From positions 24,119 to 88,118 of the forward strand of contig DVKT01000022.1 of the NCBI GenBank assembly GCA_018715885.1: a stretch of 64,000 nucleotides of DNA, given 5' to 3'. This DNA comes from Candidatus Caccoplasma intestinavium (lineage in GTDB: Bacteria; Bacteroidota; Bacteroidia; Bacteroidales; UBA11471). The translations under genes were made by a program, and so were the position numbers. The notes beneath the pieces are model-generated. The model did not search any database. It was not told the origin of the DNA and was given only the letters and a program-made list of their open reading frames with translations. This document shows, piece after piece, positions 3,510 to 59,993 of the stretch (position 1 is its first letter; every line of letters starts with the position of its first letter).

Positions 3510-3549
3510 ATAAAAAACAACTGACAATATGCTCGGAAAACAAGTCAAA

Positions 3550-3581
3550 ATGTCAGACCCACAAGGTCTGGCATTTTTTTT
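3550..3581 (+). terminator. Rho-independent terminator after clpC
   Basis: atgtcagacc-cacaa-ggtctggcat forms a 10-bp stem with one G-T pair, followed by a T8 run. Confidence 0.7.
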
Positions 3582-3622
3582 GCCTCTTATCCGACAGAAT
3601 TTAACAACAAAAATATAAAACC

Positions 3623-5674
3623 ATGCAAAAAGGATCTATTGGGGTAACTACCGATAATATATTCCCCGTCATCAAAAAGTTCTTATACAGCGACCATGAA
3701 ATCTTTTTGAGAGAGTTGGTATCAAATGCCGTCGATGCGACACAAAAGTTGAAAACACTCGCTGCCGTCGGAGATTTCAAAGGCGAACTTGGAAACTTAA
3801 ACGTCGAAGTATCTATCGATAAAGAAGCCGGTACACTGACCGTATCGGACCACGGTATAGGCATGACAGCCGAAGAAATAGAGAAATATATCAATCAGAT
3901 TGCCTTTTCGGGTGCGGAAGAATTCCTCGAAAAATACAAAAACGACGCCAACGCCATCATCGGACACTTCGGATTGGGATTCTATTCTTCGTTCATGGTT
4001 TCAAAAAAGGTCGAAATACGTACCCGTTCTTATCGGGAAGGTGCACAGGCCGTCATGTGGAGTTGCGACGGATCTCCCGAGTATACAATGGAAAATATCG
4101 ATAAAACCGATCGGGGAACCGATATCGTATTATTCATCGATGATGAAAACAAAAACTTTCTCGAGACCTCGGAAATAGAGACTTTACTCAAAAAATATTG
4201 CAGATTCCTGCCTATTCCTGTCGTATTCGGCAAAGAACAAGAGTGGAAAGACGGCAAATACGTCGATACCGATAAAGAAAAAGTCATCAATGATACGACA
4301 CCGGCATGGACCAAGAAACCGACCGAACTCAACGATGAGGATTATCGCAAATTTTATCACGAGCTATATCCGACAATGGACGAGCCATTATTTTGGATAC
4401 ATCTCAATGTCGATTATCCGTTTAAACTGACCGGTATTCTTTATTTCCCTAAAATAAGGAGTAATTTCGATGTCAATAAAAACCGTATACAACTTTATTG
4501 CAACCAAGTATTTGTAACCGATTCGGTCGAAGGTATCGTACCCGATTTCCTCATGTTGCTGCAAGGTGTCATAGATTCACCCGACATTCCCTTGAACGTA
4601 TCCCGTTCATACTTGCAGAGCGACTCCAACGTGAAAAAAATATCGACCTATATCACCAAAAAAGTTGCCGATCGCTTGCAGGAAATATTCAATAACGATC
4701 GCAAACAATTTGAGGAAAAATGGGACGACATAAAATTATTCATCGAATACGGTATGCTCTCCGACGAGAAATTTTATGAGAAAGCTCAAAAGTTTGCGTT
4801 GTTGAAAGATACCGAAGATAAGTACTACACATTTGATGAATATAAGACGCTTATCGAAGCCGAACAAACCGATAAAGACAAAAATCTGATATATATTTAC
4901 GCTACCGACCGCATCGCTCAGTACAATTATATCGAAGCGGCTAGAAACAAAGGATATAGCATATTATTGATGGACGGACAACTCGATGTACACTTCATCG
5001 GTATGCTCGAACAGAAATTCGAGAAAAGCCGTTTTGTCCGTGTCGACAGCGATATTGTAGAAAATTTGGTACGTAAAGAAGATAAAACCGACGTCTCGCT
5101 TACACCCGCACAACGAGACATGATGACAACAATCTTTAAATCGCAAATACCAAGTGTAGAAAAAGCGGAGTTTATGGTCATGTTCGAAGCAATAGGCGAA
5201 ACGGCCCAACCCATTGTCATCACGCAAAATGAGTTTATGCGTCGTATGAAAGACATGTCGGCCATGCAGCCGGGCATGAGTTTCTACGGAGAAATGCCCG
5301 ATAGTTACAACCTTATCGTAAATACACAGCATCCGTTGGCCCAACGGGTATTATCAGAGGCAGAGACAGCTTGCAATGCCGAGATAGACCCGCTGCGTAC
5401 TCAAATAAATGCGCTGAATGACGAAATAACCAAATTGCAAGAGGCTTCCAAAGACAAAAAAAGCGATGAAATACCGGTCGAAGAGAAAGATCGTCTCAAA
5501 AATAAAGAAAACGAGGTCGCCGCTTTGCGTCAAAAAGAAAATAACATACTCAGCGACTATGCCGCCGGGAATAAGTTGGTGCGTCAATTGGTTGATTTAG
5601 CTCTTCTCTCAAACAACATGCTGAAAGGAGAAGCTCTGAGCCGTTTTGTAAAACGCTCGGTCGATTTATTATAA
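3623..5674 (+). CDS. htpG: Molecular chaperone HtpG (Hsp90 family)
   Basis: 683 aa. N-terminal GHKL ATPase signature (FLRELVSNAVDATQKL, DHGIGMT, GHFGLGFYS). Confidence 0.95.
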   Translation: MQKGSIGVTTDNIFPVIKKFLYSDHEIFLRELVSNAVDATQKLKTLAAVGDFKGELGNLNVEVSIDKEAGTLTVSDHGIGMTAEEIEKYINQIAFSGAEEFLEKYKNDANAIIGHFGLGFYSSFMVSKKVEIRTRSYREGAQAVMWSCDGSPEYTMENIDKTDRGTDIVLFIDDENKNFLETSEIETLLKKYCRFLPIPVVFGKEQEWKDGKYVDTDKEKVINDTTPAWTKKPTELNDEDYRKFYHELYPTMDEPLFWIHLNVDYPFKLTGILYFPKIRSNFDVNKNRIQLYCNQVFVTDSVEGIVPDFLMLLQGVIDSPDIPLNVSRSYLQSDSNVKKISTYITKKVADRLQEIFNNDRKQFEEKWDDIKLFIEYGMLSDEKFYEKAQKFALLKDTEDKYYTFDEYKTLIEAEQTDKDKNLIYIYATDRIAQYNYIEAARNKGYSILLMDGQLDVHFIGMLEQKFEKSRFVRVDSDIVENLVRKEDKTDVSLTPAQRDMMTTIFKSQIPSVEKAEFMVMFEAIGETAQPIVITQNEFMRRMKDMSAMQPGMSFYGEMPDSYNLIVNTQHPLAQRVLSEAETACNAEIDPLRTQINALNDEITKLQEASKDKKSDEIPVEEKDRLKNKENEVAALRQKENNILSDYAAGNKLVRQLVDLALLSNNMLKGEALSRFVKRSVDLL

Positions 5675-5693
5675 AGCTTCTACACTGTATAAG

Positions 5694-5728
5694 AAAGTCC
5701 GTTTAATACCCAATTAGGCGGACTTTTT
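5694..5728 (+). terminator. Possible terminator after htpG
   Basis: aaagtccg ... cggacttt forms an 8-bp stem with a ~17-nt loop, followed by ttttgt. The long loop lowers confidence. Confidence 0.4.
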
Positions 5729-5782
5729 GTCGTAAATAATCGAAGCGAATTATTATATTTGTAAAATCAAGAAAAGTACAAT

Positions 5783-6781
5783 ATGATAGAAGAAAGATAC
5801 AAAGCCGATACTCATCGGTACGACACGATGATTTATCGCCGTTGCGGGCACAGCGGCTTGTTGCTTCCCTCTTTGTCATTGGGACTATGGCATAACTTCG
5901 GCAGTATCGACGATTACGATACATACAGCCGCATTGCTTTGGCAGCATTCGACAACGGTATTACCCACTTCGATCTGGCCAATAATTACGGCCCTGTATA
6001 CGGATCGGCAGAAGAAAATTTCGGACGTATTTTAAAACGATCATTAGGCCGTTACCGCGATGAACTGGTTATATCTACCAAAGCCGGTTACGACATGTGG
6101 CCGGGACCATACGGAAATTGGGGAAGCCGCAAATACCTCATGGCAAGTCTTGACCAAAGCCTAAAACGCATGGGAATCGAGTATGTAGATATTTTTTACT
6201 CGCATCGACCCGACCCCGATACACCGATAGAAGAGACGATGGGTGCACTGGCCGATATGGTACGCATGGGTAAAGCCCTCTATGTCGGCATATCAAGATA
6301 TAGCCCTGAACAAACAATTAAAGCCGTCGCAGCTCTGAATGAATATAAGATACCCTGCCTCATACATCAGGTTCGTTACTCTATGTTCGACCGCACCGTA
6401 GAATCCGAGCTATTAGGCTTATTAAAAGATATGGGTATCGGCATGATTGTCTTTTCTCCTTTGGCAGAAGGATTACTCACCGATCGCTACCTGAACGGTA
6501 TTCCCGCCGATTCAAGGGCAGCCCGAGCAACCGGACATCTGAAAAAAGACTCCATCACCCCCGAAAAACTCTCTCAAATACAACAGTTGAACGATATTGC
6601 TCGGCAACGCAACCAAACTCTCGCCCAAATGTCTATTTCTTGGTTGTTACGTAACGAAACCGTTACCTCGGTTCTGATTGGAGCCAGCTCGCCCCAACAG
6701 CTCAAAGATAATCTCAAAGCCCAGGAAAACATCGGTTTTTCTGATGAAGAACTTTCTGCCATCGACAAAATTTTGAAGTAA
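5783..6781 (+). CDS. Aldo/keto reductase (YghZ / L-glyceraldehyde-3-phosphate reductase-like)
   Basis: 332 aa. AKR motifs include GITHFDLANNYG, STKAGY and YVDIFYSHRPD. A TATATTTG box lies at 5754..5761 upstream. Confidence 0.85.
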   Translation: MIEERYKADTHRYDTMIYRRCGHSGLLLPSLSLGLWHNFGSIDDYDTYSRIALAAFDNGITHFDLANNYGPVYGSAEENFGRILKRSLGRYRDELVISTKAGYDMWPGPYGNWGSRKYLMASLDQSLKRMGIEYVDIFYSHRPDPDTPIEETMGALADMVRMGKALYVGISRYSPEQTIKAVAALNEYKIPCLIHQVRYSMFDRTVESELLGLLKDMGIGMIVFSPLAEGLLTDRYLNGIPADSRAARATGHLKKDSITPEKLSQIQQLNDIARQRNQTLAQMSISWLLRNETVTSVLIGASSPQQLKDNLKAQENIGFSDEELSAIDKILK

Positions 6782-7754: not shown

Positions 7755-8069
7755 TTATCGCCACTCTTCGTCTATGTCCCAACGACTCTTTTTCAAATCG
7801 ACACAACCGTTTTTCTTGAAAGATACGCCTTCCGCTTCCAATAAAGAACGCTGTTCGAACCACGTCGGGACCAACCGTCCACAACTGTTTACAACCCGAT
7901 GACAAGGCAACGACAAATCTTCCGGAACATGGAACAAGGCTTGTCCCACCATGCGAGAACACAAAGGCTTCCCCATAAGATATGCAATTTGCCCGTATGT
8001 AACGACCCGTCCCTCTGGAATTTCTTTTACAATGTCATATACCTCCCGATAAAAAAGGTATCTCTCCAT
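7755..8069 (-). CDS. MGMT-family protein (methylated-DNA-protein-cysteine methyltransferase DNA-binding domain only)
   Basis: The track ORF 7755..8336 overlaps pyrD. The sensible start is the internal M (MERYLFYREVY...). PCHRVV active-site motif is present. 104 aa. Confidence 0.75.
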   Translation of the reverse strand: MERYLFYREVYDIVKEIPEGRVVTYGQIAYLMGKPLCSRMVGQALFHVPEDLSLPCHRVVNSCGRLVPTWFEQRSLLEAEGVSFKKNGCVDLKKSRWDIDEEWR

Positions 8070-8077
8070 CGATAAAT

Positions 8078-8989
8078 TCAGACCTTTAACGCGCCGATGA
8101 TTTCTTCTACTGACCGACAACCGTGTCTGTCGAGGTAATCTTCTATACCATCGACAATTTTCACCGTTATTTGCGGATCGATAAAGTTGGCGGTTCCGAC
8201 CTGAATGGCACGAGCTCCGGCCAAAAGGAATTCTATGGCATCGGTCGCATTCATAATTCCCCCTAATCCTATAATGGGGATTTTTACCGCATGAAAGACT
8301 TGCCAAACCATACGCAACGCAATCGGTTTGACGCAAGGCCCCGATAAACCTCCGGTAACAGTCGAAACGACAGGGCGTTGACTTTCGGCATCAATAGCCA
8401 TACCCAACAATGTATTGATAAGAGAGACAGAGTCAGCACCTTCGGCTTCCACGGCACGAGCGATCTCGGTTATATCGGTTACGTTGGGCGACAATTTCAC
8501 AATGAGTGTACCGGGATAAGCAGCACGTACAGCTTTTACCACCGATGCCGCACTTTTGCATGACGTACCGAAAGCCATACCGCCCTCTTTCACATTCGGG
8601 CACGAAATATTCAATTCTATCGCCGGGATCTTATCCAAAGAGGCCAAACGGCCCGCAGTCTCGGCATAATCATCGATAGTAGAACCCGAGACATTCACCA
8701 AAATCCGAGTATCAAGATCTTTTATTTGGGGATATATATGCTCTACGAAATAATCGACTCCTTTGTTCTGCAATCCTACGGCATTGATCATACCCGAAGG
8801 CGTTTCGGCCATTCGGGGATAAGGATTGCCTTCTCGGGCTTTCAACGTCGTTCCTTTGACGATAATACCGCCCAATCGGGACAGATCGATAAAATCGGCA
8901 AACTCCAAACCATATCCGAATGTTCCGGACGCAGTCATAACGGGATTTTTCAAAGACAACCGCCCTATATTTACTTTTAAATCTGCCAT
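8078..8989 (-). CDS. pyrD: Dihydroorotate dehydrogenase B, catalytic subunit (class 1B)
   Basis: 303 aa. Contains [22 protein letters not shown] and GLSGP motifs. Overlaps pyrK by 13 nt. Confidence 0.9.
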
Positions 8990-48478: not shown

Positions 48479-50446
48479 TTATTTCTCACTTACAGATACT
48501 TCTTTTCGCATTTTTTCCAGTATATCTGTCTGCTCGACCCATAATTCCGTTAAAGCTTCGGCATCTTTCTTCAAAGTTCCGTGTTTCATACATAAATCTA
48601 TATCGGCCATACCCTCTGGGGTAGCCAGACGAGCTTCGATAGCAGAGATTTCTGTATCAAGTTTTGCCAAACGCTGTTCGGTATCGGCAACAGCACGTTC
48701 CTGACGTTTCAATTTTCTCTGCCACTCTTTACGGGCTTCAAACGACAACTTATTTTCTACGGTAGAAGTCGATGTCTTTTCAGCCGGAATTTGAGATCGA
48801 TCCTGTGATCTCGATTTTACTTCCAACTCTTTTAACGAAGCCATTTTTTTCGCCTCCAAAAAATCATATATCCCGCCTAAATGTTCTCGAACTTTCTGCT
48901 GCCCGAACTCGTACACTTTCGATACCAATCCATCGAGAAATTCCCTATCGTGCGATACGACGATAAGAGTCCCGTCAAAATCTTTCAGAGCCTGTTTCAG
49001 AACATCTTTTGTACGCATATCGAGATGGTTGGTTGGTTCGTCGAGAATCAACAGATTGACAGGTTCGAGCAACAAACGAATCATGGCAAGCCGCGTCTTT
49101 TCTCCTCCTGACAAAACTTTCACCTTTTTTTCCGAAGCCTCTCCACCAAACATAAACGCCCCCAATATATCTCGTATTTTGGTACGAATATCACCGACAG
49201 CCACTCTATCTATCGTATCGAATACCGTTACAGATTCGTCAAGAAGCTGAGCTTGATTCTGCGCAAAATATCCGATTTTCACATTGTGTCCTATTTTCAA
49301 CTCTCCATCATAAGGAATCTCTCCCATGATACATTTTACAAGTGTAGATTTTCCCTCGCCGTTCTTCCCGACAAAAGCGACTTTTTCTCCTCGCTTGATT
49401 GTAAAATCGGCATGTGCAAAAACAACATGGTCGCCATAACTTTTCCCCATATTCTTTGCAATAACAGGGTAATCACCCGACCGAGGAGCCGGAGGAAATC
49501 GTAAACGCAATCGGGAATTGTCTACTTCGTCGACCTCTATGCGTTCTATTTTTTCCAGTTGTTTGATACGCGACTGTACTTGCACCGACTTTGTGGCTTT
49601 ATAACGGAAACGTTCGATAAATGCCTCGGTATCCTGTATCTGCTTCTGCTGATTCTCAAAGGCCCGCTGCTGCTGTTCAAGACGCTCGGCCCGTAACTGC
49701 ACATATTTAGAATAATTCACCCGATAATCGTAAATATGCCCAAGAGAAATTTCGATCGTACGATTGGTTACATTATCGATAAACGCCCGGTCGTGTGAAA
49801 CCAATACAACGGCATTGGCCCTTGTGGAAAGAAACATTTCAAGCCACTGTATCGATTCTATGTCCAAATGGTTAGTAGGCTCGTCGAGCAACAATACATC
49901 GGGGCGTTGCAAAAGCAATTTGGCCAATTCGATACGCATACGCCAGCCGCCACTGAACTCGGAAGTCGATCGGTTAAAATCACTCCGCAAAAAACCAAGT
50001 CCCAATAGCGTTTTTTCTATTTCGGCCTGATAATTACCGTTGCCCGACAGTGCAAGTTGTTCGCTTACCTGAGAAATACGGTCGATCAATTCCTGATACG
50101 AATCACTTTCATAATCGGTACGTTCGGCCAATTCTGTATTCATTTGATCAAGACGTTCCTGCATCTCCTGAATATGAGAAAACGCCAATGCCGCCTCCTC
50201 GGTAACCGTACGGCTATCAGAAAGTTGCATTTGCTGCGGCAAATACCCAATGGTTATATCTTTGGGCATATTTACCGATCCTGCCGACGGTTGTTGAAGC
50301 CCCGCTATGATTTTGAGCATAGTAGACTTGCCGGCACCGTTTTTACCGACCAATGCTATACGGTCTTTTTTATTAATGACATACGTTATCTTATCGAGCA
50401 ATGTAAACCCACCGAATTCTACGGTCAGACCCTCTATTGAAATCAT
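48479..50446 (-). CDS. ABC-F family ATPase (two ABC domains, no TM domain)
   Basis: Two Walker A loops (GKNGAGKST, GKNGEGKST) and two LSGG signatures (FSGGWRMR, LSGGEKTR). Coiled-coil C-terminus. Start taken at MISIEG; 50482 is an alternative. Confidence 0.9.
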   Translation of the reverse strand: MISIEGLTVEFGGFTLLDKITYVINKKDRIALVGKNGAGKSTMLKIIAGLQQPSAGSVNMPKDITIGYLPQQMQLSDSRTVTEEAALAFSHIQEMQERLDQMNTELAERTDYESDSYQELIDRISQVSEQLALSGNGNYQAEIEKTLLGLGFLRSDFNRSTSEFSGGWRMRIELAKLLLQRPDVLLLDEPTNHLDIESIQWLEMFLSTRANAVVLVSHDRAFIDNVTNRTIEISLGHIYDYRVNYSKYVQLRAERLEQQQRAFENQQKQIQDTEAFIERFRYKATKSVQVQSRIKQLEKIERIEVDEVDNSRLRLRFPPAPRSGDYPVIAKNMGKSYGDHVVFAHADFTIKRGEKVAFVGKNGEGKSTLVKCIMGEIPYDGELKIGHNVKIGYFAQNQAQLLDESVTVFDTIDRVAVGDIRTKIRDILGAFMFGGEASEKKVKVLSGGEKTRLAMIRLLLEPVNLLILDEPTNHLDMRTKDVLKQALKDFDGTLIVVSHDREFLDGLVSKVYEFGQQKVREHLGGIYDFLEAKKMASLKELEVKSRSQDRSQIPAEKTSTSTVENKLSFEARKEWQRKLKRQERAVADTEQRLAKLDTEISAIEARLATPEGMADIDLCMKHGTLKKDAEALTELWVEQTDILEKMRKEVSVSEK

Positions 50447-50739
50447 AATAGTCGTGTTCTTAAATTTTGCCTGTTTCCACAATAGGCATTCTCAAAACAC
50501 GGCAAAGGTACACATTTTTACCCGAAGAGCATATATCCGTTTTCGTATTAAAAAAATCAGGGAAGAATCCTTACCAATTTTATGCAAAGTTACAAAAGAC
50601 CTCCGGAGAAAAGCTGCCTCATTCAGCCATTCCTCATACAATACCTTGCACACCATCTGTAAGGCAAAGTTGTAGCGCCATCTCCTCATGCGTCGCCAAC
50701 CCGTACTTTAAGGACACTCTCCCCATATTTAAAAGAGAT

Positions 50740-52683
50740 TTACCACCACTGTTGTATACCGTTTTTATAAATAAAGATCCGTTCTTCTGCCCCTCCGCTC
50801 AAATTATGTAATATATACAATTTTCCTGCCGGAACTTTTTGAAAATCGAGATAATAATCGGTAGCGGTCTTTTCTCCCACACATTGCCAAGAAAAACCGT
50901 CCCAATACTCCAAACGATAATGATTCCCCGGAATAATAAAGTTTGTATCGCTTCGGGGTACATAGCGTATCCGCGTCAATGTGTGATCATTTCTTTCACC
51001 CAAATCAAGTGCTACATACCCTTCTACTTTCTTATCTTTTCTAAAATAGGTACTATAATCACCATCGACAGCTTGTTCCCAACCTGTTTCTATTTCATTC
51101 TCCGGGACGCCAAATGCAAATCCGTTCAAAACCTGTTCTTCTTCCGTACCTTGTTTCCGACCATAAAAAACTATTTCTGCCAAATTACCCTCACGATTAT
51201 CATCAAATTTCATTCGAACATATCTATATGGACGAGTAACATTTAAGATAGAATCGACTATATCTTGTGCATCTCTATCCAAAACAGTCATTACAATTTC
51301 CGAGTCTGAAAAATCTGGATTGTCCGAGACCTCCACTGTTGCTCCTAAAAGAGCCTTCGAAAACGAGGTAATACGTGTAAATTTCGGATATTTACGAGTC
51401 AGATGCATATCGACAAAACCGGACGTATCGGATCGGATATATTCTATTCTGCCTTCCTTGTCGAGAATAAAGGGCGGTGTCGCTGGGACAAAGGTACTCT
51501 CATCGTAATAACCAGCCATATAGCAAACATCGCCTATCATATTTTTGAAATAGAACTTGCCCTCGGACACCTGCCCGTAATCGACCGGCTGCCACTCCTT
51601 GTTATCGAACACGCAGATTACGCCATACGGGAACGATCTATATCTATCAGTAACCTCAGGATCACCGGCAACATCTACATCGAATGTCGGAAAATAAAGA
51701 TGCGATACATCGATCCTATCCGACGCCAATAAATACCCGGGAACATACTCGGCAGCATTTTCATTCACATCTTGTATCTCAAAAGTCTGGCGAAATATTT
51801 TAGCCGGTTTATAGGTAAAAAAATACCGTTTTCTATCCAAGGCATCGAAAGGAAGAAACTGGCCGCTATCTTTCAAAACGACCACCCACTCGTGCCCCTG
51901 ACTACGGTTTCCCCAATGATTGACATAATCTATCGTTGCCGGAATCCCACATGCTCTCAAAGTAAGTACATAATATTCGCTCATGTGCCGGCACGATCCA
52001 CGTCGAGCCTGTTCCACCTTACTCCTCGGCAAAGAGATGGGATATCCCCACATCAATCGGCTATTTTTATACTTACGTACTCTATCGAACTCATGATACA
52101 ACTCCTTGATAAGACGGTCATCGTTGATAATAAGCGAATCTCGGATTCTCCGGAATTGCTCGAAATGCCTTTTACGATACGGTTCCAAAGGTTCATTTCC
52201 TATACGGTACGGCAACACGTACCGGCAAAAAAGGTCGAAATCTCGGGATATGAAATCCGGAACTGTCTGCCACGCCTCAAAAGCCGTCTCTATCTCCTCT
52301 ATCAAAAACTCTGCCGAAACGGTTTCCGTATCATACTGTCGTCCTAAATACAAAGGTTGCAGTCGTCCGTATTTGTGCAACAGATTCCACCAACATTGCT
52401 CGACAAGAGCAGGATCGGATTCGGAATTACCACTCCTATATAATCTTTCATATAGCGAAAATATTGTATCATAGCGTTCTATCTGTTTATCCCTATACCC
52501 AAATTTCCCGGGCATATTTTCTATTAAAAATTCCGCAGCCACCCTCTTCAAAGAATCATTGGCGTAAAAATCCAACACTTTTTCCACCTCATCATTTGGT
52601 AAAACCGGAGCTTCCAATACATTACAGCTCCATAAAATTTGCATCAAAAGCAAAATCGAAAAAATACATCTTGATATACTCAT
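50740..52683 (-). CDS. Transglutaminase-like cysteine-protease-fold lipoprotein with C-terminal discoidin (F5/8 type C)-like domains
   Basis: Signal MSISRCIFSILLLMQILWSC. Cys-His-Asp core (RGSCRHMSEY, GHEWVVV, FDALD). The C-terminal ...NLAEIVFYG is discoidin-like. Start moved from 52743 to 52683. Confidence 0.75.
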   Translation of the reverse strand: MSISRCIFSILLLMQILWSCNVLEAPVLPNDEVEKVLDFYANDSLKRVAAEFLIENMPGKFGYRDKQIERYDTIFSLYERLYRSGNSESDPALVEQCWWNLLHKYGRLQPLYLGRQYDTETVSAEFLIEEIETAFEAWQTVPDFISRDFDLFCRYVLPYRIGNEPLEPYRKRHFEQFRRIRDSLIINDDRLIKELYHEFDRVRKYKNSRLMWGYPISLPRSKVEQARRGSCRHMSEYYVLTLRACGIPATIDYVNHWGNRSQGHEWVVVLKDSGQFLPFDALDRKRYFFTYKPAKIFRQTFEIQDVNENAAEYVPGYLLASDRIDVSHLYFPTFDVDVAGDPEVTDRYRSFPYGVICVFDNKEWQPVDYGQVSEGKFYFKNMIGDVCYMAGYYDESTFVPATPPFILDKEGRIEYIRSDTSGFVDMHLTRKYPKFTRITSFSKALLGATVEVSDNPDFSDSEIVMTVLDRDAQDIVDSILNVTRPYRYVRMKFDDNREGNLAEIVFYGRKQGTEEEQVLNGFAFGVPENEIETGWEQAVDGDYSTYFRKDKKVEGYVALDLGERNDHTLTRIRYVPRSDTNFIIPGNHYRLEYWDGFSWQCVGEKTATDYYLDFQKVPAGKLYILHNLSGGAEERIFIYKNGIQQWW

Positions 52684-52708
52684 ATTCAATTCTCCTTTAA
52701 ACGTACGA

Positions 52709-54715
52709 TCAAATCGCCAATGACTTTTTATACCAAACTTCAAATAAAAAACGATATTGCTTCCATATCAAATCCTCTATATTTTTCTCCTCTGCCGGCT
52801 TATAATCATTTCCTGTAAAAATTCCCTGTGCCGTTACTCTTCCCATACGATTATATTGGTACGCCTTATCTACTAGACCTTTTCTCTCATATATACACGC
52901 CAAGTTAAACCACACTCTCGACAGATTTGGCAATTGTTCATTCGAGCTAAACAAATAAAATTCGGCCGTTTCAAAATCGCCAAGCTGCATAGCAATACTT
53001 CCATATTTAGCCAAATCAATAGGATTAGAAGGCTTCTGCGAAATATGTATCAACAAAAAATTTACAACTCGTTCAGTAAATTCTTTGTCGTAAAACCGAA
53101 GTTTTTCCCAATAGGTCGTTTTTAAAATATTCGGTTCTTGCAATACGACAGAAACAAACATTTCTATTGCTTTATCTACAAATCCTTTCTGCCGATATAT
53201 TTTATATAATTCCCATTTGAAAATAAGTTTATCAGGATAAACTGATATCCATTTTTCCAGTTCTTTTAAAAACGTATTTTCCGCTTCCTTAATGGAATAT
53301 AAGCGCACATAAAATGATAAGTGAATATCCAATGGGCTTTTCTTTAAGGCTTTTTCAAAATAACAAAGAGATCTTTCAACATTTTTATCCCGCAAAAAAA
53401 TTGCTCTGTTGACCATAAAAGAAAAACATTCCTTACTATTCCAGTTATAAAGAACCAGTCCAACCACATATGTCATCACTATACAAGGCAAGAAACAAAG
53501 TATGACTGGAAAATTCTTCTTCTCTCTTTCACATTCTACCCTTTTACTTTGTAAAAAAGCTACAAGGAAAAGGGTTGATAATTGTATAACCTTCGAATCG
53601 AACATTGTCGAAAAGGTCTGCTCCCTAACAAAAAAAGCCATTAAAAACAACGATATTATCCATAATTTCCGTTCTTTTCTCTTTATCAATAAAAAAACAA
53701 TAGACCAACAAAGTATCAAATATATACACACACCACAATAACCATACTCAATAAAAAGTTTTGAAATTGTATTGGGTGCATATGTAGTGTAAGAATCAAC
53801 CCTTTTATCACCAACCTGATAATAATCTTTCGCCAAAGTATAGTTATTCAGACCTACACCCCAAGGATATTTTTTCAAGATATCGGAGGTAATTGACATG
53901 GCCTTTACTCTCCCATCTATACTTCTTTGTTGAGAAACAGTCTTATTTATTTCAAAAACTTTTTTCGTTTCATGAGGAAATAAGAAAAAAATTCCTATTA
54001 TAAAAATAGCACAACTACCCAACAGAAATTTTTCCCGATCTACAAATAATCTCTTTCTTTCCAGTATAAACAAAACAATGGCAAACACCAGTGCCGATAA
54101 ATATATTCCTCTCGAAAATGACAATAACAATTGACACAATACCATACAGCCAGTTATAGCAGCAAGAGCCTTGACTTTTCGATTCTCAACATAAAAATAT
54201 GCGATTGCCAATATGCCCCCGAATAACCATTGTAAACTACTCCATACATTATTGGAAATTCCCAATGGAGCATACAAAAACCTGAAATCATACAACGAAG
54301 AAGAACCCGCATTATGGACAGTCTCGGAAAACAGATAATATATATAGAAAGATATAGTTAACAAAACAAAAATGCATACGGTAAATATAGAAAGAAGGTA
54401 ACCCGCAAATTTTCCATAATAGGTAAAAACATACCTCAAAATAAAGTAAGCAAATATATTTGTTATCAAATAAACGAGCATCACATTAGTATTTATCGTA
54501 TTAACTGATGGTAAAAAAAGCCCGTACGCTCCTAACAAAATAATACAAATATCACAAACACCCACTTTCAAAGGCCGTATAAATATGAATATCATTAAGC
54601 TAAAAACCAATAACAACAATTGTACAAAATACGTATCCTTGATATAAAAAAAATCAGCAAGGAACACAAATGTCAATAAACAGCAACTCGATATGCAAAC
54701 CAACTGTTTCATCAT
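52709..54715 (-). CDS. Polytopic Wzy_C (O-antigen ligase/polymerase-like) membrane protein with a C-terminal TPR-like domain
   Basis: 668 aa with more than 10 hydrophobic segments. Wzy_C-type loop LSFSRGIYLSALVF. The C-terminal ~250 aa are TPR-like helical repeats. ATGA overlap with the upstream gene. Confidence 0.6.
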   Translation of the reverse strand: MMKQLVCISSCCLLTFVFLADFFYIKDTYFVQLLLLVFSLMIFIFIRPLKVGVCDICIILLGAYGLFLPSVNTINTNVMLVYLITNIFAYFILRYVFTYYGKFAGYLLSIFTVCIFVLLTISFYIYYLFSETVHNAGSSSLYDFRFLYAPLGISNNVWSSLQWLFGGILAIAYFYVENRKVKALAAITGCMVLCQLLLSFSRGIYLSALVFAIVLFILERKRLFVDREKFLLGSCAIFIIGIFFLFPHETKKVFEINKTVSQQRSIDGRVKAMSITSDILKKYPWGVGLNNYTLAKDYYQVGDKRVDSYTTYAPNTISKLFIEYGYCGVCIYLILCWSIVFLLIKRKERKLWIISLFLMAFFVREQTFSTMFDSKVIQLSTLFLVAFLQSKRVECEREKKNFPVILCFLPCIVMTYVVGLVLYNWNSKECFSFMVNRAIFLRDKNVERSLCYFEKALKKSPLDIHLSFYVRLYSIKEAENTFLKELEKWISVYPDKLIFKWELYKIYRQKGFVDKAIEMFVSVVLQEPNILKTTYWEKLRFYDKEFTERVVNFLLIHISQKPSNPIDLAKYGSIAMQLGDFETAEFYLFSSNEQLPNLSRVWFNLACIYERKGLVDKAYQYNRMGRVTAQGIFTGNDYKPAEEKNIEDLIWKQYRFLFEVWYKKSLAI

Positions 54716-55920
54716 GATTCTTTATATACACGTATCTTCTTGTAAAATGGATATATGATCCGGTACAACATATAAAATGCCAATACCAAGAATAATAATT
54801 GAAGAACAATTTGTTGTACATTCGACCAGTCCGGAGTTTGGCGATATGACAATTCTCTTATCAATAGACTGAAACGATCAGGAAAAGTTTCATAAAACCG
54901 TACGAAAAACAAAGGTAAAACATAGAAAAAGTAAAATCCAAAAAACAAATTGACTACAACCGTATAAACTACTAATCCAGATTTTGCTCCCCGGGATAAC
55001 GCAAATAAATAGGGTCGATGCTCTACTTTTTTATTCTTTATTTTACTCAAAACATATCCAACCCATTCTGTCCCCTTTTTTCGTAAATTGGCAACCCCCA
55101 AAACATCTGACAAAATCCAATATCCGTCAAATTTGAAAAATGGATTCAATGTAATAACAAAATTCATATTCATCACCACAATTATATATTTGAAAAATGG
55201 GTAATGAAAGAAAAAATAAGCTATAAGAAACGGTATTAATAAAACCATCTGAAAATACACACCACCTATATTGATCAGAAAACGCTCCCTTCGAGTAAGT
55301 TTCCATGCCTGAGAAACATCGGTATAGAAAACAGGAATATTAAGATATAATCCGAAGCCAATATTTCCATGAGGAATCTGAAAATAATGACAAGCTGATG
55401 CATGCCCCAATTCATGTATCAACGACGAAAAAATAAAAAACAGGAATAATCCTATTACTGTATAGATACTCAGATCAACGTGTATAGTTTCAGTATAAAA
55501 TTCTGTAAAATGAATAAAATCCAGAATAATAAATATACCGACAATCGCCATCATCACACGGCTATCGAAAAGTATTTTCAGAGAAGAAGCGCACTTTCTT
55601 ACTTTCTCGGACGAAATCAAATCGTGCCGATAAAGAAATACTCCCTTTTTAGTCGAGGATACCTTTCCCTCCGCAATTTTCGACGACAGCATTTCCAAAA
55701 ATTCGATGACATCGTCTTTCGACGGATGTCCATCATGACTTTCTACATAAGTATCCACTGCCACTTCATCGCAACCATTTTCTTTGAGGTAATTCAGCAA
55801 CTCCGCCGCATCTTTTCCTATTTCAAAGAAATGATTATTAAATTCCATCAAAAAAGTTGTATGCAACGACGAAGTAGAAAAAGGTCCCACTGTTATACGC
55901 ATCAAATCAAAATTATCCAT
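54712..55920 (-). CDS. PqqD-like (RRE-like) N-terminal domain fused to an M50/site-2-protease-like intramembrane metalloprotease
   Basis: 402 aa. HELGH at residues 169-173 within a TM segment and NPFFKFDG at 259-266 (M50 NPxxxxDG). The N-terminal ~85 aa (FFEIGKDAAELLNYLKENG...DDVIEFLEMLSSK) resemble PqqD. Confidence 0.7.
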   Translation of the reverse strand: MDNFDLMRITVGPFSTSSLHTTFLMEFNNHFFEIGKDAAELLNYLKENGCDEVAVDTYVESHDGHPSKDDVIEFLEMLSSKIAEGKVSSTKKGVFLYRHDLISSEKVRKCASSLKILFDSRVMMAIVGIFIILDFIHFTEFYTETIHVDLSIYTVIGLFLFFIFSSLIHELGHASACHYFQIPHGNIGFGLYLNIPVFYTDVSQAWKLTRRERFLINIGGVYFQMVLLIPFLIAYFFFHYPFFKYIIVVMNMNFVITLNPFFKFDGYWILSDVLGVANLRKKGTEWVGYVLSKIKNKKVEHRPYLFALSRGAKSGLVVYTVVVNLFFGFYFFYVLPLFFVRFYETFPDRFSLLIRELSYRQTPDWSNVQQIVLQLLFLVLAFYMLYRIIYPFYKKIRVYKES

Positions 55921-55926
55921 AACCGA

Positions 55927-58239
55927 CTATTCTAGAATTGTTGACTGATTAATATCTTTTATTTCTGTACTATGGAATTTGTGTTTTTTCTTACCAAACG
56001 TAAAACGATAGTTGACCGTCAACTGGAACATATTGTCATAGGTGCGTTCATAACGCATCGCATTGATTTTTGAATATGACAATCTTTCATACCAACCTTT
56101 AAACGTTGTTTTCATAAAAGGACTCAATGTCCTGAATTGGATATTCCAACCTTTTATGGAGTAACCGACATTCAAATCAAAACCTCCCGACGATTGAATT
56201 TTCGTCCCAGATTTTTCTATATAAGAACGTTTAGGGGCATACCCTGCCGAAACCGACCAGCCTTTATGAAAAAAATAACAATCGATTGACACATTATACG
56301 AATCACCATATATCGTTTTCCAATATGCTAACTTTTCATGCTTATAGTTTCCATATACCTCAACCATCAATTTTTGGGGTATAATACTATATTGCAACTG
56401 TAATTCATAACTTTGCGATATAGAATTACCACTACTTCGCTGCTGACAGACAAACATATCTCTGTCAGCAGCGTATTCGATATTGGTATAAGGTGAACGG
56501 TAATCTCCTCCGAATATAAAACCCGCACCCACAAAGAATCGATCTACTACCCAAGTATAAATAGCTCCGGCTTGATATTTTCGCCAATCTTTCAACCCGG
56601 GATTTCCTACGGAAATTTCATAAATATTACGACGGTACTCCGTAGCCGTGAGGTTGGTAATACTGGGCGAAGAACCTGATGTTTCGGCAACTATCTGTAA
56701 CATATGTGTTTTATACATATATGTCATTTGCAATGATGGTACAAACATATGATCGAAATAGGTATCAGCACCTGTTTGGCTGAATGATAAACGTTCTGCT
56801 AATCGCAAACGCAAATTCAAACGATTTTTTACCTTGTAATTATAGGTAAGATATAATTGTGTGTTGCCTCGGTTCAAATATACGTCGGATACCACACCTT
56901 CACGCGCGTTGCGATCGTCGGTGCGGGTAAAGTCCTGATTGGCTTCTACATTAAATGACGAACGATTCTTGAATGTTTTGGTATAATTGATTTTAAACCG
57001 TCCATACCAACTCGATTCGTCGGTTGCATTATCATAGGCCGAAGTTATTACATCATCGATTCGATAAACATACCAACGTTTGTAGTCGTTATTACCATAA
57101 CTGCCATACCAATCCATACGCAAACGCTGGTCGTTTTTCAACGCACATTCATACCAAAACGACAATGCCGGAGACAAACCGGTCGAATGCCGGTTTTCTT
57201 GCATAGTATAGGTTTCGGGGGTATTGCTGAATGTCTGACTATTCCATACATCATTCTCTCTCAAGTTTTGATTCAAACGAAAAGAAGAATAGACACTCTG
57301 TTTTTTATCTTTATATATGTAATTGAAATAAGAACGCAAATTATTACTGTTTTTTTGTGAAGGTAGTTCTTGGGTCGTATTCACATTCGTTCCATCAGGA
57401 AAACCGTAAGCCGTTTCTGTATAATTTTCGCTATTGTAGTTACTAAAACAATCATAGCTGTCGGCCACAGAAAGGGCAAATTCCGACTTCCCTTGAAAAT
57501 ATTGAGCCGTCCCCCGAGCACTACCTGTAGGTTTATTTAAGTTATGCTGACCATTGACTGCAACCGTACCGGCATAGTCCCGCTCTTTCAGTACATAGTC
57601 AAACACAACATCAGCTTTGGGATAGTCGGTATTACCATTGGTATAGAAATCGATTCGCTTGATATCTCGCGGATTCAAATTGTTTACCTCGTCTTCGGTG
57701 GCTTCCCGTCCGTCAATGCAGAACAATATCTCTCGTCCCATATAAGTCGGTTTCTGGTCATATATGCCGATGCTCACACCGGGTATGGTCATTGTTCTCA
57801 ACAAGCTGTTTCGGTCATACACATGACGTAACTGTTCACGAGTAGGGTATATCATCGTTTTTTCAGCAGTGTGCACCGTATGATTACCCGTAACAATAAC
57901 CTCCTGTATGAGTGCAGAACTCCGGCTCAAAGTAATATCGCCAAGCCGCACCAACTTTTCTTCGGTAGGATTCAATATAAGGGTCATCTCTTTATAACCG
58001 AGATAGCCTATTTGCAGACGAAACGCCTGTTTCCCCCCCGATAGTTTCAATCTAAAATCTCCTTTACTGTCAGTTATCATACTAGCAACAAGAAGAGTAT
58101 CGGAAGTAAAACAACATACCGTTGCCCCTATCAGGTCATTCCGCTCACTATCCCGCACATGACCTTCCACCTCGATGGTCTGTGCCATAACAGATGGAAT
58201 AGTTGTAAATATGACGATAAAAAAAACGATATATTTCAT
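55927..58239 (-). CDS. TonB-dependent-receptor-like outer membrane beta-barrel (CarboxypepD_reg + plug-like + barrel)
   Basis: Signal MKYIVFFIVIFTTIPSVMAQ. VEGHVRDSERNDLIGATV...DSKGDFRL is carboxypeptidase-regulatory-like. A plug-like segment is present (LLRTMTIPGVSI...CIDGRE...IKRIDFY). The barrel is aromatic-rich and alternating. The track start at 58263 is an alternative. Confidence 0.8.
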   Translation of the reverse strand: MKYIVFFIVIFTTIPSVMAQTIEVEGHVRDSERNDLIGATVCCFTSDTLLVASMITDSKGDFRLKLSGGKQAFRLQIGYLGYKEMTLILNPTEEKLVRLGDITLSRSSALIQEVIVTGNHTVHTAEKTMIYPTREQLRHVYDRNSLLRTMTIPGVSIGIYDQKPTYMGREILFCIDGREATEDEVNNLNPRDIKRIDFYTNGNTDYPKADVVFDYVLKERDYAGTVAVNGQHNLNKPTGSARGTAQYFQGKSEFALSVADSYDCFSNYNSENYTETAYGFPDGTNVNTTQELPSQKNSNNLRSYFNYIYKDKKQSVYSSFRLNQNLRENDVWNSQTFSNTPETYTMQENRHSTGLSPALSFWYECALKNDQRLRMDWYGSYGNNDYKRWYVYRIDDVITSAYDNATDESSWYGRFKINYTKTFKNRSSFNVEANQDFTRTDDRNAREGVVSDVYLNRGNTQLYLTYNYKVKNRLNLRLRLAERLSFSQTGADTYFDHMFVPSLQMTYMYKTHMLQIVAETSGSSPSITNLTATEYRRNIYEISVGNPGLKDWRKYQAGAIYTWVVDRFFVGAGFIFGGDYRSPYTNIEYAADRDMFVCQQRSSGNSISQSYELQLQYSIIPQKLMVEVYGNYKHEKLAYWKTIYGDSYNVSIDCYFFHKGWSVSAGYAPKRSYIEKSGTKIQSSGGFDLNVGYSIKGWNIQFRTLSPFMKTTFKGWYERLSYSKINAMRYERTYDNMFQLTVNYRFTFGKKKHKFHSTEIKDINQSTILE

Positions 58240-58347
58240 TATATTATCATATAATGTATACAAAAATTGAGGGTAATCAAGATTTATACTGAATATAATA
58301 CCATATATAATTTAAAAATATAGATCTCTCACACCCTCAACTTTTAT

Positions 58348-58569
58348 TTATAAATCAAATTCTTGGCAATATTCTGAACAGTATTGCTTACATTTTCCAT
58401 TACATATACAAATGCATTCATCCGAAGAATCAGAACTATCCATATTCAACAACGCCGCTATTGCTAACGGGTCTGTTTCCAATCGTTGTTCCAGCTCATC
58501 TAAATAAAAAGCTGGCAACTCTTCGTTCAGAGAACGAAGTTCATTTTTCTTCTCTTTCATAATTTTCAT
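58348..58569 (-). CDS. Candidate RiPP precursor peptide: acidic helical leader plus Cys-rich CXXX-repeat core
   Basis: 73 aa. All 6 Cys lie at residues 52, 54, 56, 60, 64 and 68 (CICICNGKCKQYCSEYCQEFDL). The leader is ...PAFYLDELEQRLETDPLAIAALLNMDSSDSSDE. Starts 15 nt after the radical SAM gene stop. Confidence 0.75.
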   Translation of the reverse strand: MKIMKEKKNELRSLNEELPAFYLDELEQRLETDPLAIAALLNMDSSDSSDECICICNGKCKQYCSEYCQEFDL

Positions 58570-58584
58570 TTTTAAGTTAATAAA

Positions 58585-59925
58585 TCAGTTATTTAATTGC
58601 AGATCTGCATACGCTTTATTGACAGCATAACGCACAATATCTTCCATACGAAGACAATGATGTCGTTTCAGATTATGAGCCGGACATCCGCATCCGCATA
58701 ACAAAGCATATTTGCACACGGTACAAGCCTGAATCTCTGATATATGCGCCTTATGCCAATTGTCGAGAGGTTCCTGACTCCAAGAAACACCGCCAGCACT
58801 CGCATAATGACCTATGCAGTGTTCGGGCCGGCCTACGACTTCCCAGCAAGGATAGATATTACCATATGGATCAAAAACAAAGCTTCCAGTCTGCGCTCTA
58901 CAAAAAATAGGATGAAAAGACAGAGGTTTTTTCCTCATAATGGCTTGATAAAGTTTATCAAACACGCCATAATCCTGATATTCAAATTGAGATTTAGAAA
59001 CACTATGCTTTTGAATAAATTCTCGTTGCGTCAAGTAATGATAAGTATTGTCCGTTTCGGATTCAGAATAATCAACCAACAATGCCGAATTCATTGAAAA
59101 AAGCGGATTTTCGACATACTGTAAACGCTCGAAAATCGCTTGTAACTCTTTCAAATCTTCGATATTCTCCCTATCTGTATTAACCCGTACAGAAACCCGA
59201 ACACCTCTCTTCAAAGCCAAACCGATATTATCCAAAATACGGTCGAATGTAGGGAAACCCTGGCAATGTATGCGACGACTATTATGGTGGTCACGAACAC
59301 CATCTACCGTGATTTGCAAAAAAGCGATGCCGTCGGGTGAAAGTAAGTCTTCATAAGCAACCAAATCATAACCATTTGTAATAGCAGAAAATGTAAAACC
59401 TAACCTTTTGCCTCTATCAATAATATAAGATATGATTTTTCTGTTTTGTACTAAAAGAGGTTCCCCTCCATATAATGTAATATTTTTAAAAAAATACTTT
59501 TCGTTAGGTTCTATATAAAAAATTGCTTCAAAAGCTTTATCTACCATCTCAGGAGTAAATACCATTTTATCCCTTCCTACTCCTTTCTCAAAACAATATG
59601 GGCAACGGAAATTACAATCGTAAGTAATGACAAATGTAAAACCTTTTTTCAACAACATATCTCTACGGAATAAAATATCGGCCATGTATGCAACATAATC
59701 ATACTCTTCTTGCTCCGCTTTTTCAGTAATATATCCGCGTTGTATCAATGCAGACCATGTTTTTGCAGAATAAGGAAATTCACTCTCTGTAAACGTATCG
59801 TGACTATTGATAAAAGAAACGATTTTATCATTCACTAAATCAATAGCTCCTGTATAACCGTGAATCAACATATGATCATTACTACCATCGACCTTTACAT
59901 CGGTCATATAAGAAGACTTTCTCAT
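58585..59925 (-). CDS. Radical SAM/SPASM-domain peptide-modifying enzyme (putative maturase of the adjacent peptide)
   Basis: 446 aa. CX3CX2C at C104/C108/C111 (YDCNFRCPYCF). C-terminal auxiliary-cluster Cys pattern (CRAQTGSFVFDPYGNIYPC...C...CTVCKYALLCGCGC). ~95-aa N-terminal extension. Confidence 0.9.
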   Translation of the reverse strand: MRKSSYMTDVKVDGSNDHMLIHGYTGAIDLVNDKIVSFINSHDTFTESEFPYSAKTWSALIQRGYITEKAEQEEYDYVAYMADILFRRDMLLKKGFTFVITYDCNFRCPYCFEKGVGRDKMVFTPEMVDKAFEAIFYIEPNEKYFFKNITLYGGEPLLVQNRKIISYIIDRGKRLGFTFSAITNGYDLVAYEDLLSPDGIAFLQITVDGVRDHHNSRRIHCQGFPTFDRILDNIGLALKRGVRVSVRVNTDRENIEDLKELQAIFERLQYVENPLFSMNSALLVDYSESETDNTYHYLTQREFIQKHSVSKSQFEYQDYGVFDKLYQAIMRKKPLSFHPIFCRAQTGSFVFDPYGNIYPCWEVVGRPEHCIGHYASAGGVSWSQEPLDNWHKAHISEIQACTVCKYALLCGCGCPAHNLKRHHCLRMEDIVRYAVNKAYADLQLNN

Positions 59926-59962
59926 GATATTAAATTTTTACATTAATCAATAATATTTTTTG

Positions 59963-59993
59963 CAAATATAGAAAATTTATTTTATAAAACAAA
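59963..59993 (-). promoter_or_regulatory. Bacteroides-type promoter (TTTG-N19-TATATTTG) for the radical SAM/peptide operon
   Basis: On the minus strand, TTTG lies at 59993..59990, followed by a 19-nt spacer and TATATTTG at 59970..59963. This is 38 nt upstream of ATG 59925. Confidence 0.45.

Follow-up and report, generated by a model that had tools for sequence, protein, structure and literature searches.

A conserved six-gene Bacteroidales cassette for a predicted radical SAM-modified peptide and its proposed transit through the envelope

How might a gut bacterium of the order Bacteroidales make a modified ribosomal peptide and move it across two membranes? This question is raised by six minus-strand genes at positions 50740-59925 of a 64,000-nucleotide stretch of contig DVKT01000022.1 from Candidatus Caccoplasma intestinavium, which was analysed as a whole and is referred to here as the window. 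The genes encode a radical S-adenosylmethionine (rSAM) enzyme with a SPASM domain, a short Cys-rich peptide, an outer-membrane protein (OMP), a membrane protease, a membrane protein with a Wzy_C domain and tetratricopeptide repeats (TPRs), and a transglutaminase-like lipoprotein. Bacteroidales dominate the human gut, and to our knowledge almost none of their modified ribosomal peptides have been characterized. We show that the six genes form one conserved unit. We further propose, with moderate confidence, that this unit (the cassette) serves the biosynthesis and envelope transit of a widespread, uncharacterized family of peptides synthesized ribosomally and then modified post-translationally (RiPPs) in gut Bacteroidales.

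Architecture and conservation of the cassette

The genes of the cassette are, in the direction of transcription:

58585-59925, minus strand: rSAM/SPASM peptide maturase (predicted), 446 aa
58348-58569, minus strand: precursor peptide (predicted), 73 aa
55927-58239, minus strand: OMP, 770 aa, with ATG start MKYIVFF and signal peptide MKYIVFFIVIFTTIPSVMAQ
54712-55920, minus strand: HExxH membrane protease (site-2/M50-like), 402 aa
52709-54715, minus strand: Wzy_C/TPR membrane protein, 668 aa
50740-52683, minus strand: transglutaminase-like lipoprotein, 647 aa, with ATG start MSISR and lipobox LWSC

The open reading frame (ORF) listing and a direct reading of the sequence agree on these six genes, in accordance with an initial annotation of this DNA that had been made from the sequence alone. 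The spacings given there are also exact: from the rSAM gene to the lipoprotein gene, the gaps are 15, 108, 6, −4 (an overlap) and 25 nt, with the second gap reduced to 84 nt if the OMP starts at an alternative upstream TTG (58263).

Conservation was analysed in two scans. The genome-contig scan was run from the rSAM side; it draws on the matches listed and undersamples Bacteroidales, which is compensated by a metagenome scan with the Wzy_C/TPR protein as bait. In the metagenome loci, the protease gene lies directly upstream of the Wzy_C/TPR gene in 44 of the 46 cases with enough upstream sequence, and within 3.2 kb in the other two. Among the 20 baited loci with full context, the six-gene order is identical in 13 and the rSAM gene is present in 18, at Wzy_C/TPR protein identities of 23-48%. 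The same six genes in the same order are also found in Prevotella (locus L001) and on a 3.6-Mb contig (L082). In Segatella copri (L006), Paraprevotella (L002) and Butyricimonas (L081), the transglutaminase-like gene is shifted upstream, and the rearranged versions keep the members of the cassette. Co-conservation thus extends over Prevotella, Segatella, Bacteroides, Butyricimonas, Paraprevotella and related genera, and the envelope genes belong to one conserved unit, as had been suggested from the window by itself.

The Bacteroidales cassette occurs in two versions. The OMP gene is never found in one cassette with genes for an FtsX-type permease, an ATP-binding cassette (ABC) ATPase, an outer-membrane efflux protein (OEP) or a membrane fusion protein (MFP), and every locus for which the context suffices carries one of the two alternatives. 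In about 38 OMP-bearing loci, including divergent Segatella versions confirmed by blastp, the cassette is free of FtsX/ABC/OEP/MFP genes. Where the OMP is missing (L002, L081, L100, L101, L104-L106 and L005), FtsX-type permease genes are always present and in most cases an ABC ATPase gene as well, with OEP and MFP genes in addition in L002, L081 and L104-L106. Substrates of MacB pumps are taken from the periplasm and leave through TolC. On the simplest view of this mutual exclusivity, the OMP performs the outer-membrane exit, and the alternation as such points to outer-membrane transit. It would follow that the inner-membrane step is performed by something that the two versions share: the protease, the Wzy_C/TPR protein or a housekeeping system.

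Outside Bacteroidales, a core of rSAM enzyme, precursor and protease was found in Balneola, Ignavibacteria, Melioribacteraceae, Ktedonosporobacter, Petrocella, Clostridium and Endomicrobiia. The partners of this core differ. In five loci among the matches listed, the partner is a protein of 660-740 aa with an alpha-alpha-toroid domain similar to squalene-hopene cyclases and prenyltransferases:

L007, 5229-7217: toroid-domain protein
L008, 12105-14237: toroid-domain protein
L009, 13154-15379: toroid-domain protein
L016, 6863-9073: toroid-domain protein
L017, 2158-4131: toroid-domain protein

In Ignavibacteria, the partner is a fusion of a lipid A acyltransferase with PqqD (L011, 3024-4181) together with a TPR protein, and FtsX/ABC genes are another replacement partner beyond Bacteroidales.

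Several loci depart from these arrangements. In two Segatella-copri-like metagenome loci (L123, 6429-11923, and L128, 6489-11983), the OMP-protease-Wzy_C/TPR trio is present without the upstream rSAM, precursor and transglutaminase-like genes, and a MutS-like gene and the gene of a 590-aa lipoprotein are found upstream instead; these trios may be remnants of the cassette or re-purposed versions of it. In L110, the OMP gene is split (1277-2509 and 7773-8771) by an insertion of ∼5.2 kb containing several ORFs, one of which encodes a small radical-SAM-activase-like protein, and the cassette is otherwise intact. L003 contains a single ORF of 1094 aa (3142-6426), with the protease as its N-terminal part and the OMP as its C-terminal part, both upstream of the rSAM gene; an artefact (from a frameshift or from the assembly) or an odd fusion would explain this ORF.

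The radical SAM/SPASM maturase

The rSAM enzyme contains the CX3CX2C motif (C104-NFR-C108-PY-C111) and the seven cysteines of a SPASM domain (C342, C360, C401, C404, C410, C414 and C424), all of which are invariant in 20 homologues. A database protein annotated from Candidatus Caccoplasma intestinavium (family Bacteroidaceae) is 100% identical to it. The enzyme matches Pfam Radical_SAM with E = 8e-16 and 59 bits (cut-off 29.5) and the NCBIfam SPASM model TIGR04085 with 52.7 bits (cut-off 27). Its best NCBIfam matches are all maturases of Cys-rich peptides: CefB (NF038107; 129.3 bits, cut-off 600), TIGR04463 (117.5 bits, cut-off 525), PapB (NF047865; 110.6 bits, cut-off 340), FlmE/OhkG (109 bits) and Clo7bot (103 bits), with the last two also far under their curated cut-offs. 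When the family profile was compared with PDB, the best match was CteB, the SCIFF thioether synthase (5wgg; 6.7e-29), ahead of a sulfatase maturase (2.4e-18). Taken together, these comparisons support placing the enzyme closest to thioether-forming peptide maturases rather than to sulfatase maturases. Ranthipeptides and sactipeptides, the products of such enzymes, have a Cys sulfur bound to a carbon of the acceptor residue, with a mass change of about −2 Da per link.

Three more specific assignments were rejected. Membership in CefB, PapB, SCIFF or another named family is contradicted by scores below the curated cut-offs throughout. As an anaerobic sulfatase maturase (TIGR03942), the enzyme scores 58.9 bits (cut-off 349) and ranks below CteB in PDB, so that the grouping with sulfatase maturases or another non-peptide rSAM group, which had been named as the outcome that would speak against a peptide substrate, was not observed. 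Nor is the enzyme a member of the CXXX-repeat maturase family TIGR04115, which the initial annotation had mentioned: the match reaches 56.7 bits against a cut-off of 350, covers residues 94-362 only and ranks 15th in NCBIfam.

The precursor peptide

The precursor consists of three parts:

within 58348-58569, minus strand: leader at approximately residues 10-41 (ELRSLNEELPAFYLDELEQRLETDPLAIAALLN), acidic/Ser spacer, and core CICICNGKCKQYCSEYCQEFDL

The leader is near-invariant, with the consensus ELRSLNxELPxLYxEELEQRLETDPLAxGGLL in 25 database homologues and ∼30 further copies in the fetched loci, and it is followed in the homologues by an acidic/Ser-rich spacer of ∼16 residues and a hypervariable Cys-rich end. 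A profile of leader plus core retrieved 210 representatives at 50% clustering (E ≤ 1e-3, out of 1.84 billion); two long eukaryote-like repeat proteins were set aside as spurious. No Pfam or NCBIfam model matched the precursor or its leader. In related Bacteroidales loci that reach far enough, the precursor gene lies directly 3′ of the rSAM gene, and the same holds in several other phyla. The maturase-plus-precursor RiPP pair of the initial annotation is supported.

The cores contain 2-12 cysteines (mode 3), and spacings of 2, 4, 5 and 6 between them are each frequent. The window core carries a CxxxC repeat (C-NGK-C-KQY-C-SEY-C), which is extended to 7-8 units in some relatives. Given the irregular spacing across cores, this repeat is a sub-pattern and not a rule of the family; the description of the peptide as a CXXX-repeat protein is therefore accurate for the window and a subset of relatives but not for most cores. 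At least three residues follow the last Cys in 138 of 142 distinct cores (mode 4). The position Cys+3 is occupied by Y, H, K or N in 39.6% of cases, compared with 21.8 ± 1.5% in within-core shuffles (maximum of 1000 shuffles, 26.6%). This fits short rings between Cys and a downstream residue, but as a statistical hint only. Cys, Asp, Glu and His are abundant in the cores, whose mean net charge is −2.3. Double-glycine processing by a C39 protease, considered because of the AxGGLL ending of many leaders, was rejected, as the GG is replaced by AA, SA, SG, GN or pairs like these and no C39 domain was found. Hundreds of different cores on one leader are the pattern expected for molecules of inter-strain competition or communication, and the hypervariability of the predicted cores suggests a role in inter-bacterial competition or signalling.

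The gene is followed by a predicted RNA feature that is conserved in position:

58260-58347, minus strand, immediately after the stop codon of the precursor gene: long hairpin with an A-tract and a T-tract on its flanks, a candidate for a partial terminator or an attenuator

Its predicted fold has a free energy of −34 kcal/mol (z = −5.0). A strong hairpin, often followed by a T-run, is present at the equivalent position in most of the 17 related loci that were folded, and the sequences of these hairpins are unrelated. Such operons commonly rely on partial termination 3′ of the precursor gene to favour precursor over enzyme, and the hairpin here probably has this effect, leaving precursor mRNA more abundant than enzyme mRNA.

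Two variants of the precursor were also encountered. Protein P0124 (ENA contig of 1.9 kb) is a 47-aa version of the window peptide with an identical core, from which exactly the leader segment FYLDELEQRLETDPLAIAALLNM is missing; this could reflect a deletion that occurred naturally or an artefact of assembly. In Ktedonosporobacter rubrisoli (L009, 11499-12765), five precursors with a related leader (...EIEGLNDEDITAELLDERVELSTVVPLW) and short CxCDxDC cores are arranged in tandem.

The intramembrane protease

The protease contains the metal ligands of site-2 proteases, H169-E-L-G-H173 and N259-P-F-F-K-F-D265-G266. Neither motif (HExxH or NPFxxxDG) varies among 13 homologues from several phyla or among 40 homologues from databases. 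In NCBIfam, the protein matches daptide_HExxH (E = 5e-24, 85 bits, cut-off 300) and YydH/LiaK (E = 3.5e-12, 46.5 bits, cut-off 225). The Pfam model Peptidase_M50 (PF02163) scores below its gathering score in the window protein (7.7 bits against 27.2; E = 2.6), and a precomputed PF02163 match is present in two homologues. The AlphaFold2 model computed from 40 sequences has a predicted local distance difference test score of 87 and a predicted TM-score of 0.81. Its top Foldseek match is SpoIVFB (8vjm) with a probability of 1.00 but with E = 0.012 and a TM-score of 0.26-0.35. The pairing of rSAM enzyme and peptide with a dedicated membrane metalloprotease, which had been read from the window, agrees with these invariant motifs and with the synteny described above.

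In the model, residues 1-90 form a soluble domain with three strands and three helices (E10-14, E22-27, E30-35, H36-48, H52-61 and H68-90), the order of elements expected for a RiPP recognition element. The initial annotation had described the protein as a PqqD-M50 fusion. The metalloprotease half of that description stands by its invariant motifs even though PF02163 is matched at E = 2.6, and the PqqD half was not detected by sequence (no Pfam match to PF05402 at E ≤ 10). A PDB profile search with the N-terminal domain gave chance matches only, and its hhalign comparison with the rSAM N-terminus gave a probability of 1.8%. In fold searches, the only long alignments of low root-mean-square deviation are with the recognition elements of ThcOx, TbiB1 (solved with its leader) and McbB (TM-score 0.45-0.50, E ≥ 0.5), and the resemblance to leader-binding domains is weak. 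Binding of the leader by this domain is plausible but unproven.

The envelope proteins

The OMP has a CarboxypepD_reg domain (Pfam, E = 1e-6), and its N-terminal domain matches SusC. CarboxypepD_reg was found in all four family members analysed, and the OMP_b-brl_3 barrel (PF14905) in three of the four. Plug and TonB_dep_Rec domains were detected neither in the window OMP at E ≤ 10 nor in the four family members at E ≤ 0.1. The protein had been called TonB-dependent-like; its N-terminal domain and the barrel of its homologues are in agreement with that label, and the missing Plug and TonB_dep_Rec matches are not.

The polytopic Wzy_C/TPR protein matches Pfam Wzy_C (PF04932, the O-antigen ligase/polymerase superfamily) over residues 192-332 with 48 bits (cut-off 31.7), and its C-terminal 240 residues are TPRs according to both Pfam and PDB profile matches. 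From K/R-rich loops (219-229, 345-350 and 396-403) with a further transmembrane helix after them, the TPR domain is predicted to face the periplasm. In the O-antigen ligase WaaL, conserved His and Arg residues of periplasmic loops are catalytic, and activity depends on such a His. An alignment of six sequences of the Wzy_C domain, which did not include a reference WaaL, contains invariant Arg residues (SFSRG, SQQRS...R) and no invariant His in the conserved loops.

The lipoprotein, which is of the papain-fold type, matches Transglut_core (PF01841) with 28.7 bits (cut-off 23). C231 and H264 are invariant in seven sequences, and the third catalytic position varies (D, N, E or A). Its C-terminal part comprises two galactose-binding-like/discoidin modules, for which the family profile matches the carbohydrate-binding module CBM62 (2yb7) with 1.8e-24 in two stretches. 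The F5_F8_type_C domain that had been read into the protein is found by Pfam in three of seven homologues and not in the window protein itself, and the PDB profile supports it for the family. The remaining domain calls of the initial annotation (Radical_SAM, SPASM, CarboxypepD_reg, Wzy_C, TPR and Transglut_core) were reproduced by the profile searches.

Proposed pathway and alternative explanations

In the pathway that we propose, the rSAM/SPASM enzyme would recognize the leader in the cytoplasm and install intramolecular cross-links on the core cysteines. These would most likely be thioethers from Cys to a residue a few positions downstream, given the enrichment of Y/H/K/N at Cys+3 and the three or more residues after the last Cys. 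The cytoplasmic N-terminal domain of the HExxH protease would then hold the leader while the protease cuts it off and possibly passes the core across the inner membrane, as has been proposed for EpeP. The Wzy_C protein and the glycan-binding, transglutaminase-like lipoprotein of cysteine-protease fold would handle, trim or modify the peptide in the periplasm. Finally, the CarboxypepD_reg/beta-barrel OMP, or a MacB-TolC-type pump where the OMP is absent, would take the product over the outer membrane. Precedents for two of these steps are given in a review (PMC10885120), according to which EpeP, an M50 protease, is considered both to cleave the epipeptide and to export it, and the leader peptidases of lasso peptides are transglutaminase-like cysteine proteases.

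Several points weigh against this pathway. Thioether formation is proposed from distant homology only, the rSAM enzyme misses every named family by a wide margin, the Cys spacing of the cores is irregular, and SPASM enzymes also form C-C and C-O links. Leader binding by the N-terminal domain of the protease has no statistical support. No recognizable inner-membrane exporter or immunity gene was found in the window cassette, and the OMP could import rather than export. Wzy_C proteins are known to act on undecaprenyl-linked glycans, not on peptides, and a simple secreted-peptide model explains neither the role of the Wzy_C protein here nor that of the carbohydrate-binding modules. Co-transcription is deduced from gene spacing only, and a promoter-like match also lies within the cassette at 54910-54942.

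The glycan-related features could point to a different product, which we consider unlikely. After export of the cross-linked peptide, the WaaL/Wzy-like protein would couple it with an undecaprenyl-linked glycan, with a lipid or with a surface polysaccharide, in one direction or the other, and the lipoprotein would process or anchor the conjugate, giving a glyco- or lipo-conjugated or cell-surface-attached RiPP that is not released free. In line with this, the Wzy_C/TPR gene is linked to the cassette as strictly as the protease gene, the K/R-rich loops put its predicted TPR domain in the periplasm, and the lipoprotein has its two CBM62/discoidin-like modules. Other phyla substitute lipid-handling enzymes, i.e. 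the toroid-domain protein in five loci among the matches listed and the lipid A acyltransferase-PqqD fusion, and this recurrence of lipid- or glycan-carrier-type enzymes keeps peptide conjugation alive beside simple release. However, the cassette has no glycosyltransferase, flippase or sugar-nucleotide gene, the six aligned Wzy_C sequences have no invariant His in the conserved loops, and the alternation of the OMP with MacB-TolC suits the release of a soluble product. A fuller scheme of late maturation in the envelope, in which the protease cuts the leader and translocates the core without an ABC transporter, the Wzy-like enzyme couples a lipid-linked glycan or lipid, the lipoprotein processes or anchors the conjugate and the barrel releases it, likewise has a low probability. 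If true, it would represent a new class of envelope-assembled glyco- or lipo-RiPPs in dominant gut Bacteroidales.

It is less probable still that the product binds metal, as a metallophore or metallothionein-like RiPP, and that its loaded form is re-imported by the TonB-dependent-like OMP. The composition and negative charge of the cores and the OMP N-terminal domain, which is typical of SusC/TonB-dependent transporters, agree with such a role, and in methanobactin clusters a RiPP is encoded together with a TonB-dependent importer. Plug and TonB_dep_Rec were undetected, however, and what replaces the OMP in other cassettes is an efflux-type MacB/TolC pump and not an importer. Nor do the cores look like a conserved metal site, as their length, Cys number (2-12) and spacing are hypervariable, and cross-linking by the rSAM enzyme would use up their thiols. 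That the RiPP system comprises only the rSAM enzyme, peptide and protease, with the OMP, Wzy_C/TPR and transglutaminase-like genes as chance neighbours, might be argued from the absence of these three genes from non-Bacteroidales relatives (among the matches listed) and from the Segatella-like loci that keep OMP, protease and Wzy_C without rSAM enzyme or peptide, but it is made very improbable by a co-occurrence that persists down to 23-28% protein identity and across changes in gene order, by the adjacent protease in 44 of 46 Wzy-baited loci, and by window genes that overlap or are spaced 4-25 nt apart.

Relation to known systems

The proposed biosynthetic pathway resembles ranthipeptide and sactipeptide systems (CteB/SCIFF, PapB/freyrasin, CefB 'Cys-every-fifth' and TIGR04463) in that the gene of a SPASM enzyme adjoins that of a small precursor, in which a conserved leader is combined with a Cys-rich core. 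It differs from them in that the window enzyme is far under the family cut-offs and its leader (SLN...ELEQRLETDPL) has no model. The departure from the usual export solution that had been noted earlier is also real: the window cassette has neither an ABC transporter nor a C39 domain, and its accessory proteins are instead the M50-like protease, the OMP, the Wzy_C/TPR protein and the transglutaminase-like lipoprotein. With TIGR04115 targets, the CxxxC repeats are shared by the window core and a subset of relatives, but the enzyme lies far below the cut-off of that family and most cores lack the repeats.

Epipeptide (YydFGHIJ/EpeXEPAB of Bacillus) and daptide clusters likewise pair their tailoring enzymes (of the rSAM type for epipeptides) with a protease of the intramembrane HExxH/M50 kind. 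According to PMC10885120, this protease removes the leader and may export the product. Unlike its counterparts, the window protease scores under their cut-offs, has an extra N-terminal domain of 90 residues and is not accompanied by an ABC transporter in the window cassette, and its predicted substrate is Cys-rich, whereas theirs are epimerized or C-terminally aminated. A transglutaminase-fold Cys/His enzyme in a RiPP cluster recalls the B protein of lasso peptides, which works with a RiPP recognition element. However, that protein is small and cytoplasmic, and the window enzyme is a predicted exported lipoprotein of 647 aa with an N-terminal helical region and two carbohydrate-binding modules, in whose family the third catalytic residue is unconserved. 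In sister cassettes (L002, L081, L100, L101 and L104-L106), MacAB-TolC-type exporters stand where the OMP would be, which suggests an equivalent step, although the window cassette has a single CarboxypepD_reg/OMP_b-brl_3 barrel and no ATPase or adaptor.

A full-text literature search, whose coverage excludes most subscription journals, found no description of the six-gene set, in agreement with the initial annotation, and the NCBIfam names CefB, OhkG and FlmE returned nothing relevant in full-text literature. Neither the precursor nor the accessory proteins have a model in NCBIfam as of June 2026, and the rSAM enzyme has none at the level of its family. RiPP mining in Bacteroidales has reported a different cluster with YcaO, rSAM and PCAT proteins, and that report mentions no M50 protease, O-antigen ligase, transglutaminase or TonB protein (PMC10352776). 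The cassette appears to define a new, widespread family of predicted rSAM/SPASM-modified peptides within a known kind, with an unusual and strictly co-conserved envelope module, and remains a candidate from genome mining. It offers a test case for how a Gram-negative anaerobe could move a modified peptide across both membranes without the usual protease-ABC exporter, and envelope proteins of the O-antigen-ligase-like and transglutaminase-like types may turn out to have a new function in it. For mining and heterologous production, the conserved leader is a ready handle.

Transcription signals and genomic context

The cassette is preceded by a promoter-like element:

59963-59993, minus strand: Bacteroides-type promoter, with TTTG at −33 (59993-59990), N19, and TATATTTG at −7 (59970-59963)

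The element lies ∼37 nt 5′ of the rSAM start codon, and direct reading confirms it as initially annotated. The pattern TTTG-N17-23-TAnnTTTG occurs 11 times in the window, compared with 3.3 expected, and 11 matches were reached by none of 100 shuffles. The match at 54910-54942 (minus strand) is exact as well and lies within the 3′ end of the protease gene, ∼200 nt before the Wzy_C/TPR start; it may be an internal promoter or a chance occurrence. The ABC-F gene downstream of the cassette (48479-50482) has a TAccTTTG −7-like element of its own (50492-50520, minus strand). The cassette transcript therefore probably ends in the ∼250-nt spacer after 50740, in which a terminator-like site was not found.

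The AT-richness of the block and the 355-nt divergent spacer between the rSAM gene and uxuA, both noted earlier, were confirmed. The block is the stretch of 9.25 kb with the lowest GC content in the window (36.7%, compared with 42.5% elsewhere); in 9.25-kb segments that do not overlap it, the minimum is 40.1% and the mean is 41.8% (standard deviation 1.2%). Part of this low GC content is due to two very hydrophobic membrane proteins, the Wzy_C/TPR protein and the protease, the genes of which have GC contents of 32.3% and 34.0%, respectively.

The block had also been interpreted as an accessory islet. No tRNA near the block, no mobility gene or integrase and no flanking direct or inverted repeats beyond chance were found, and this part of the interpretation is left without support, while the low GC content is in line with it. 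So are the flanks, since the uxuA, ABC-F and M13 peptidase genes adjoin the cassette in no other locus. The genomic context is thus variable and no mobility mechanism is visible. Horizontal spread of the cassette is plausible.

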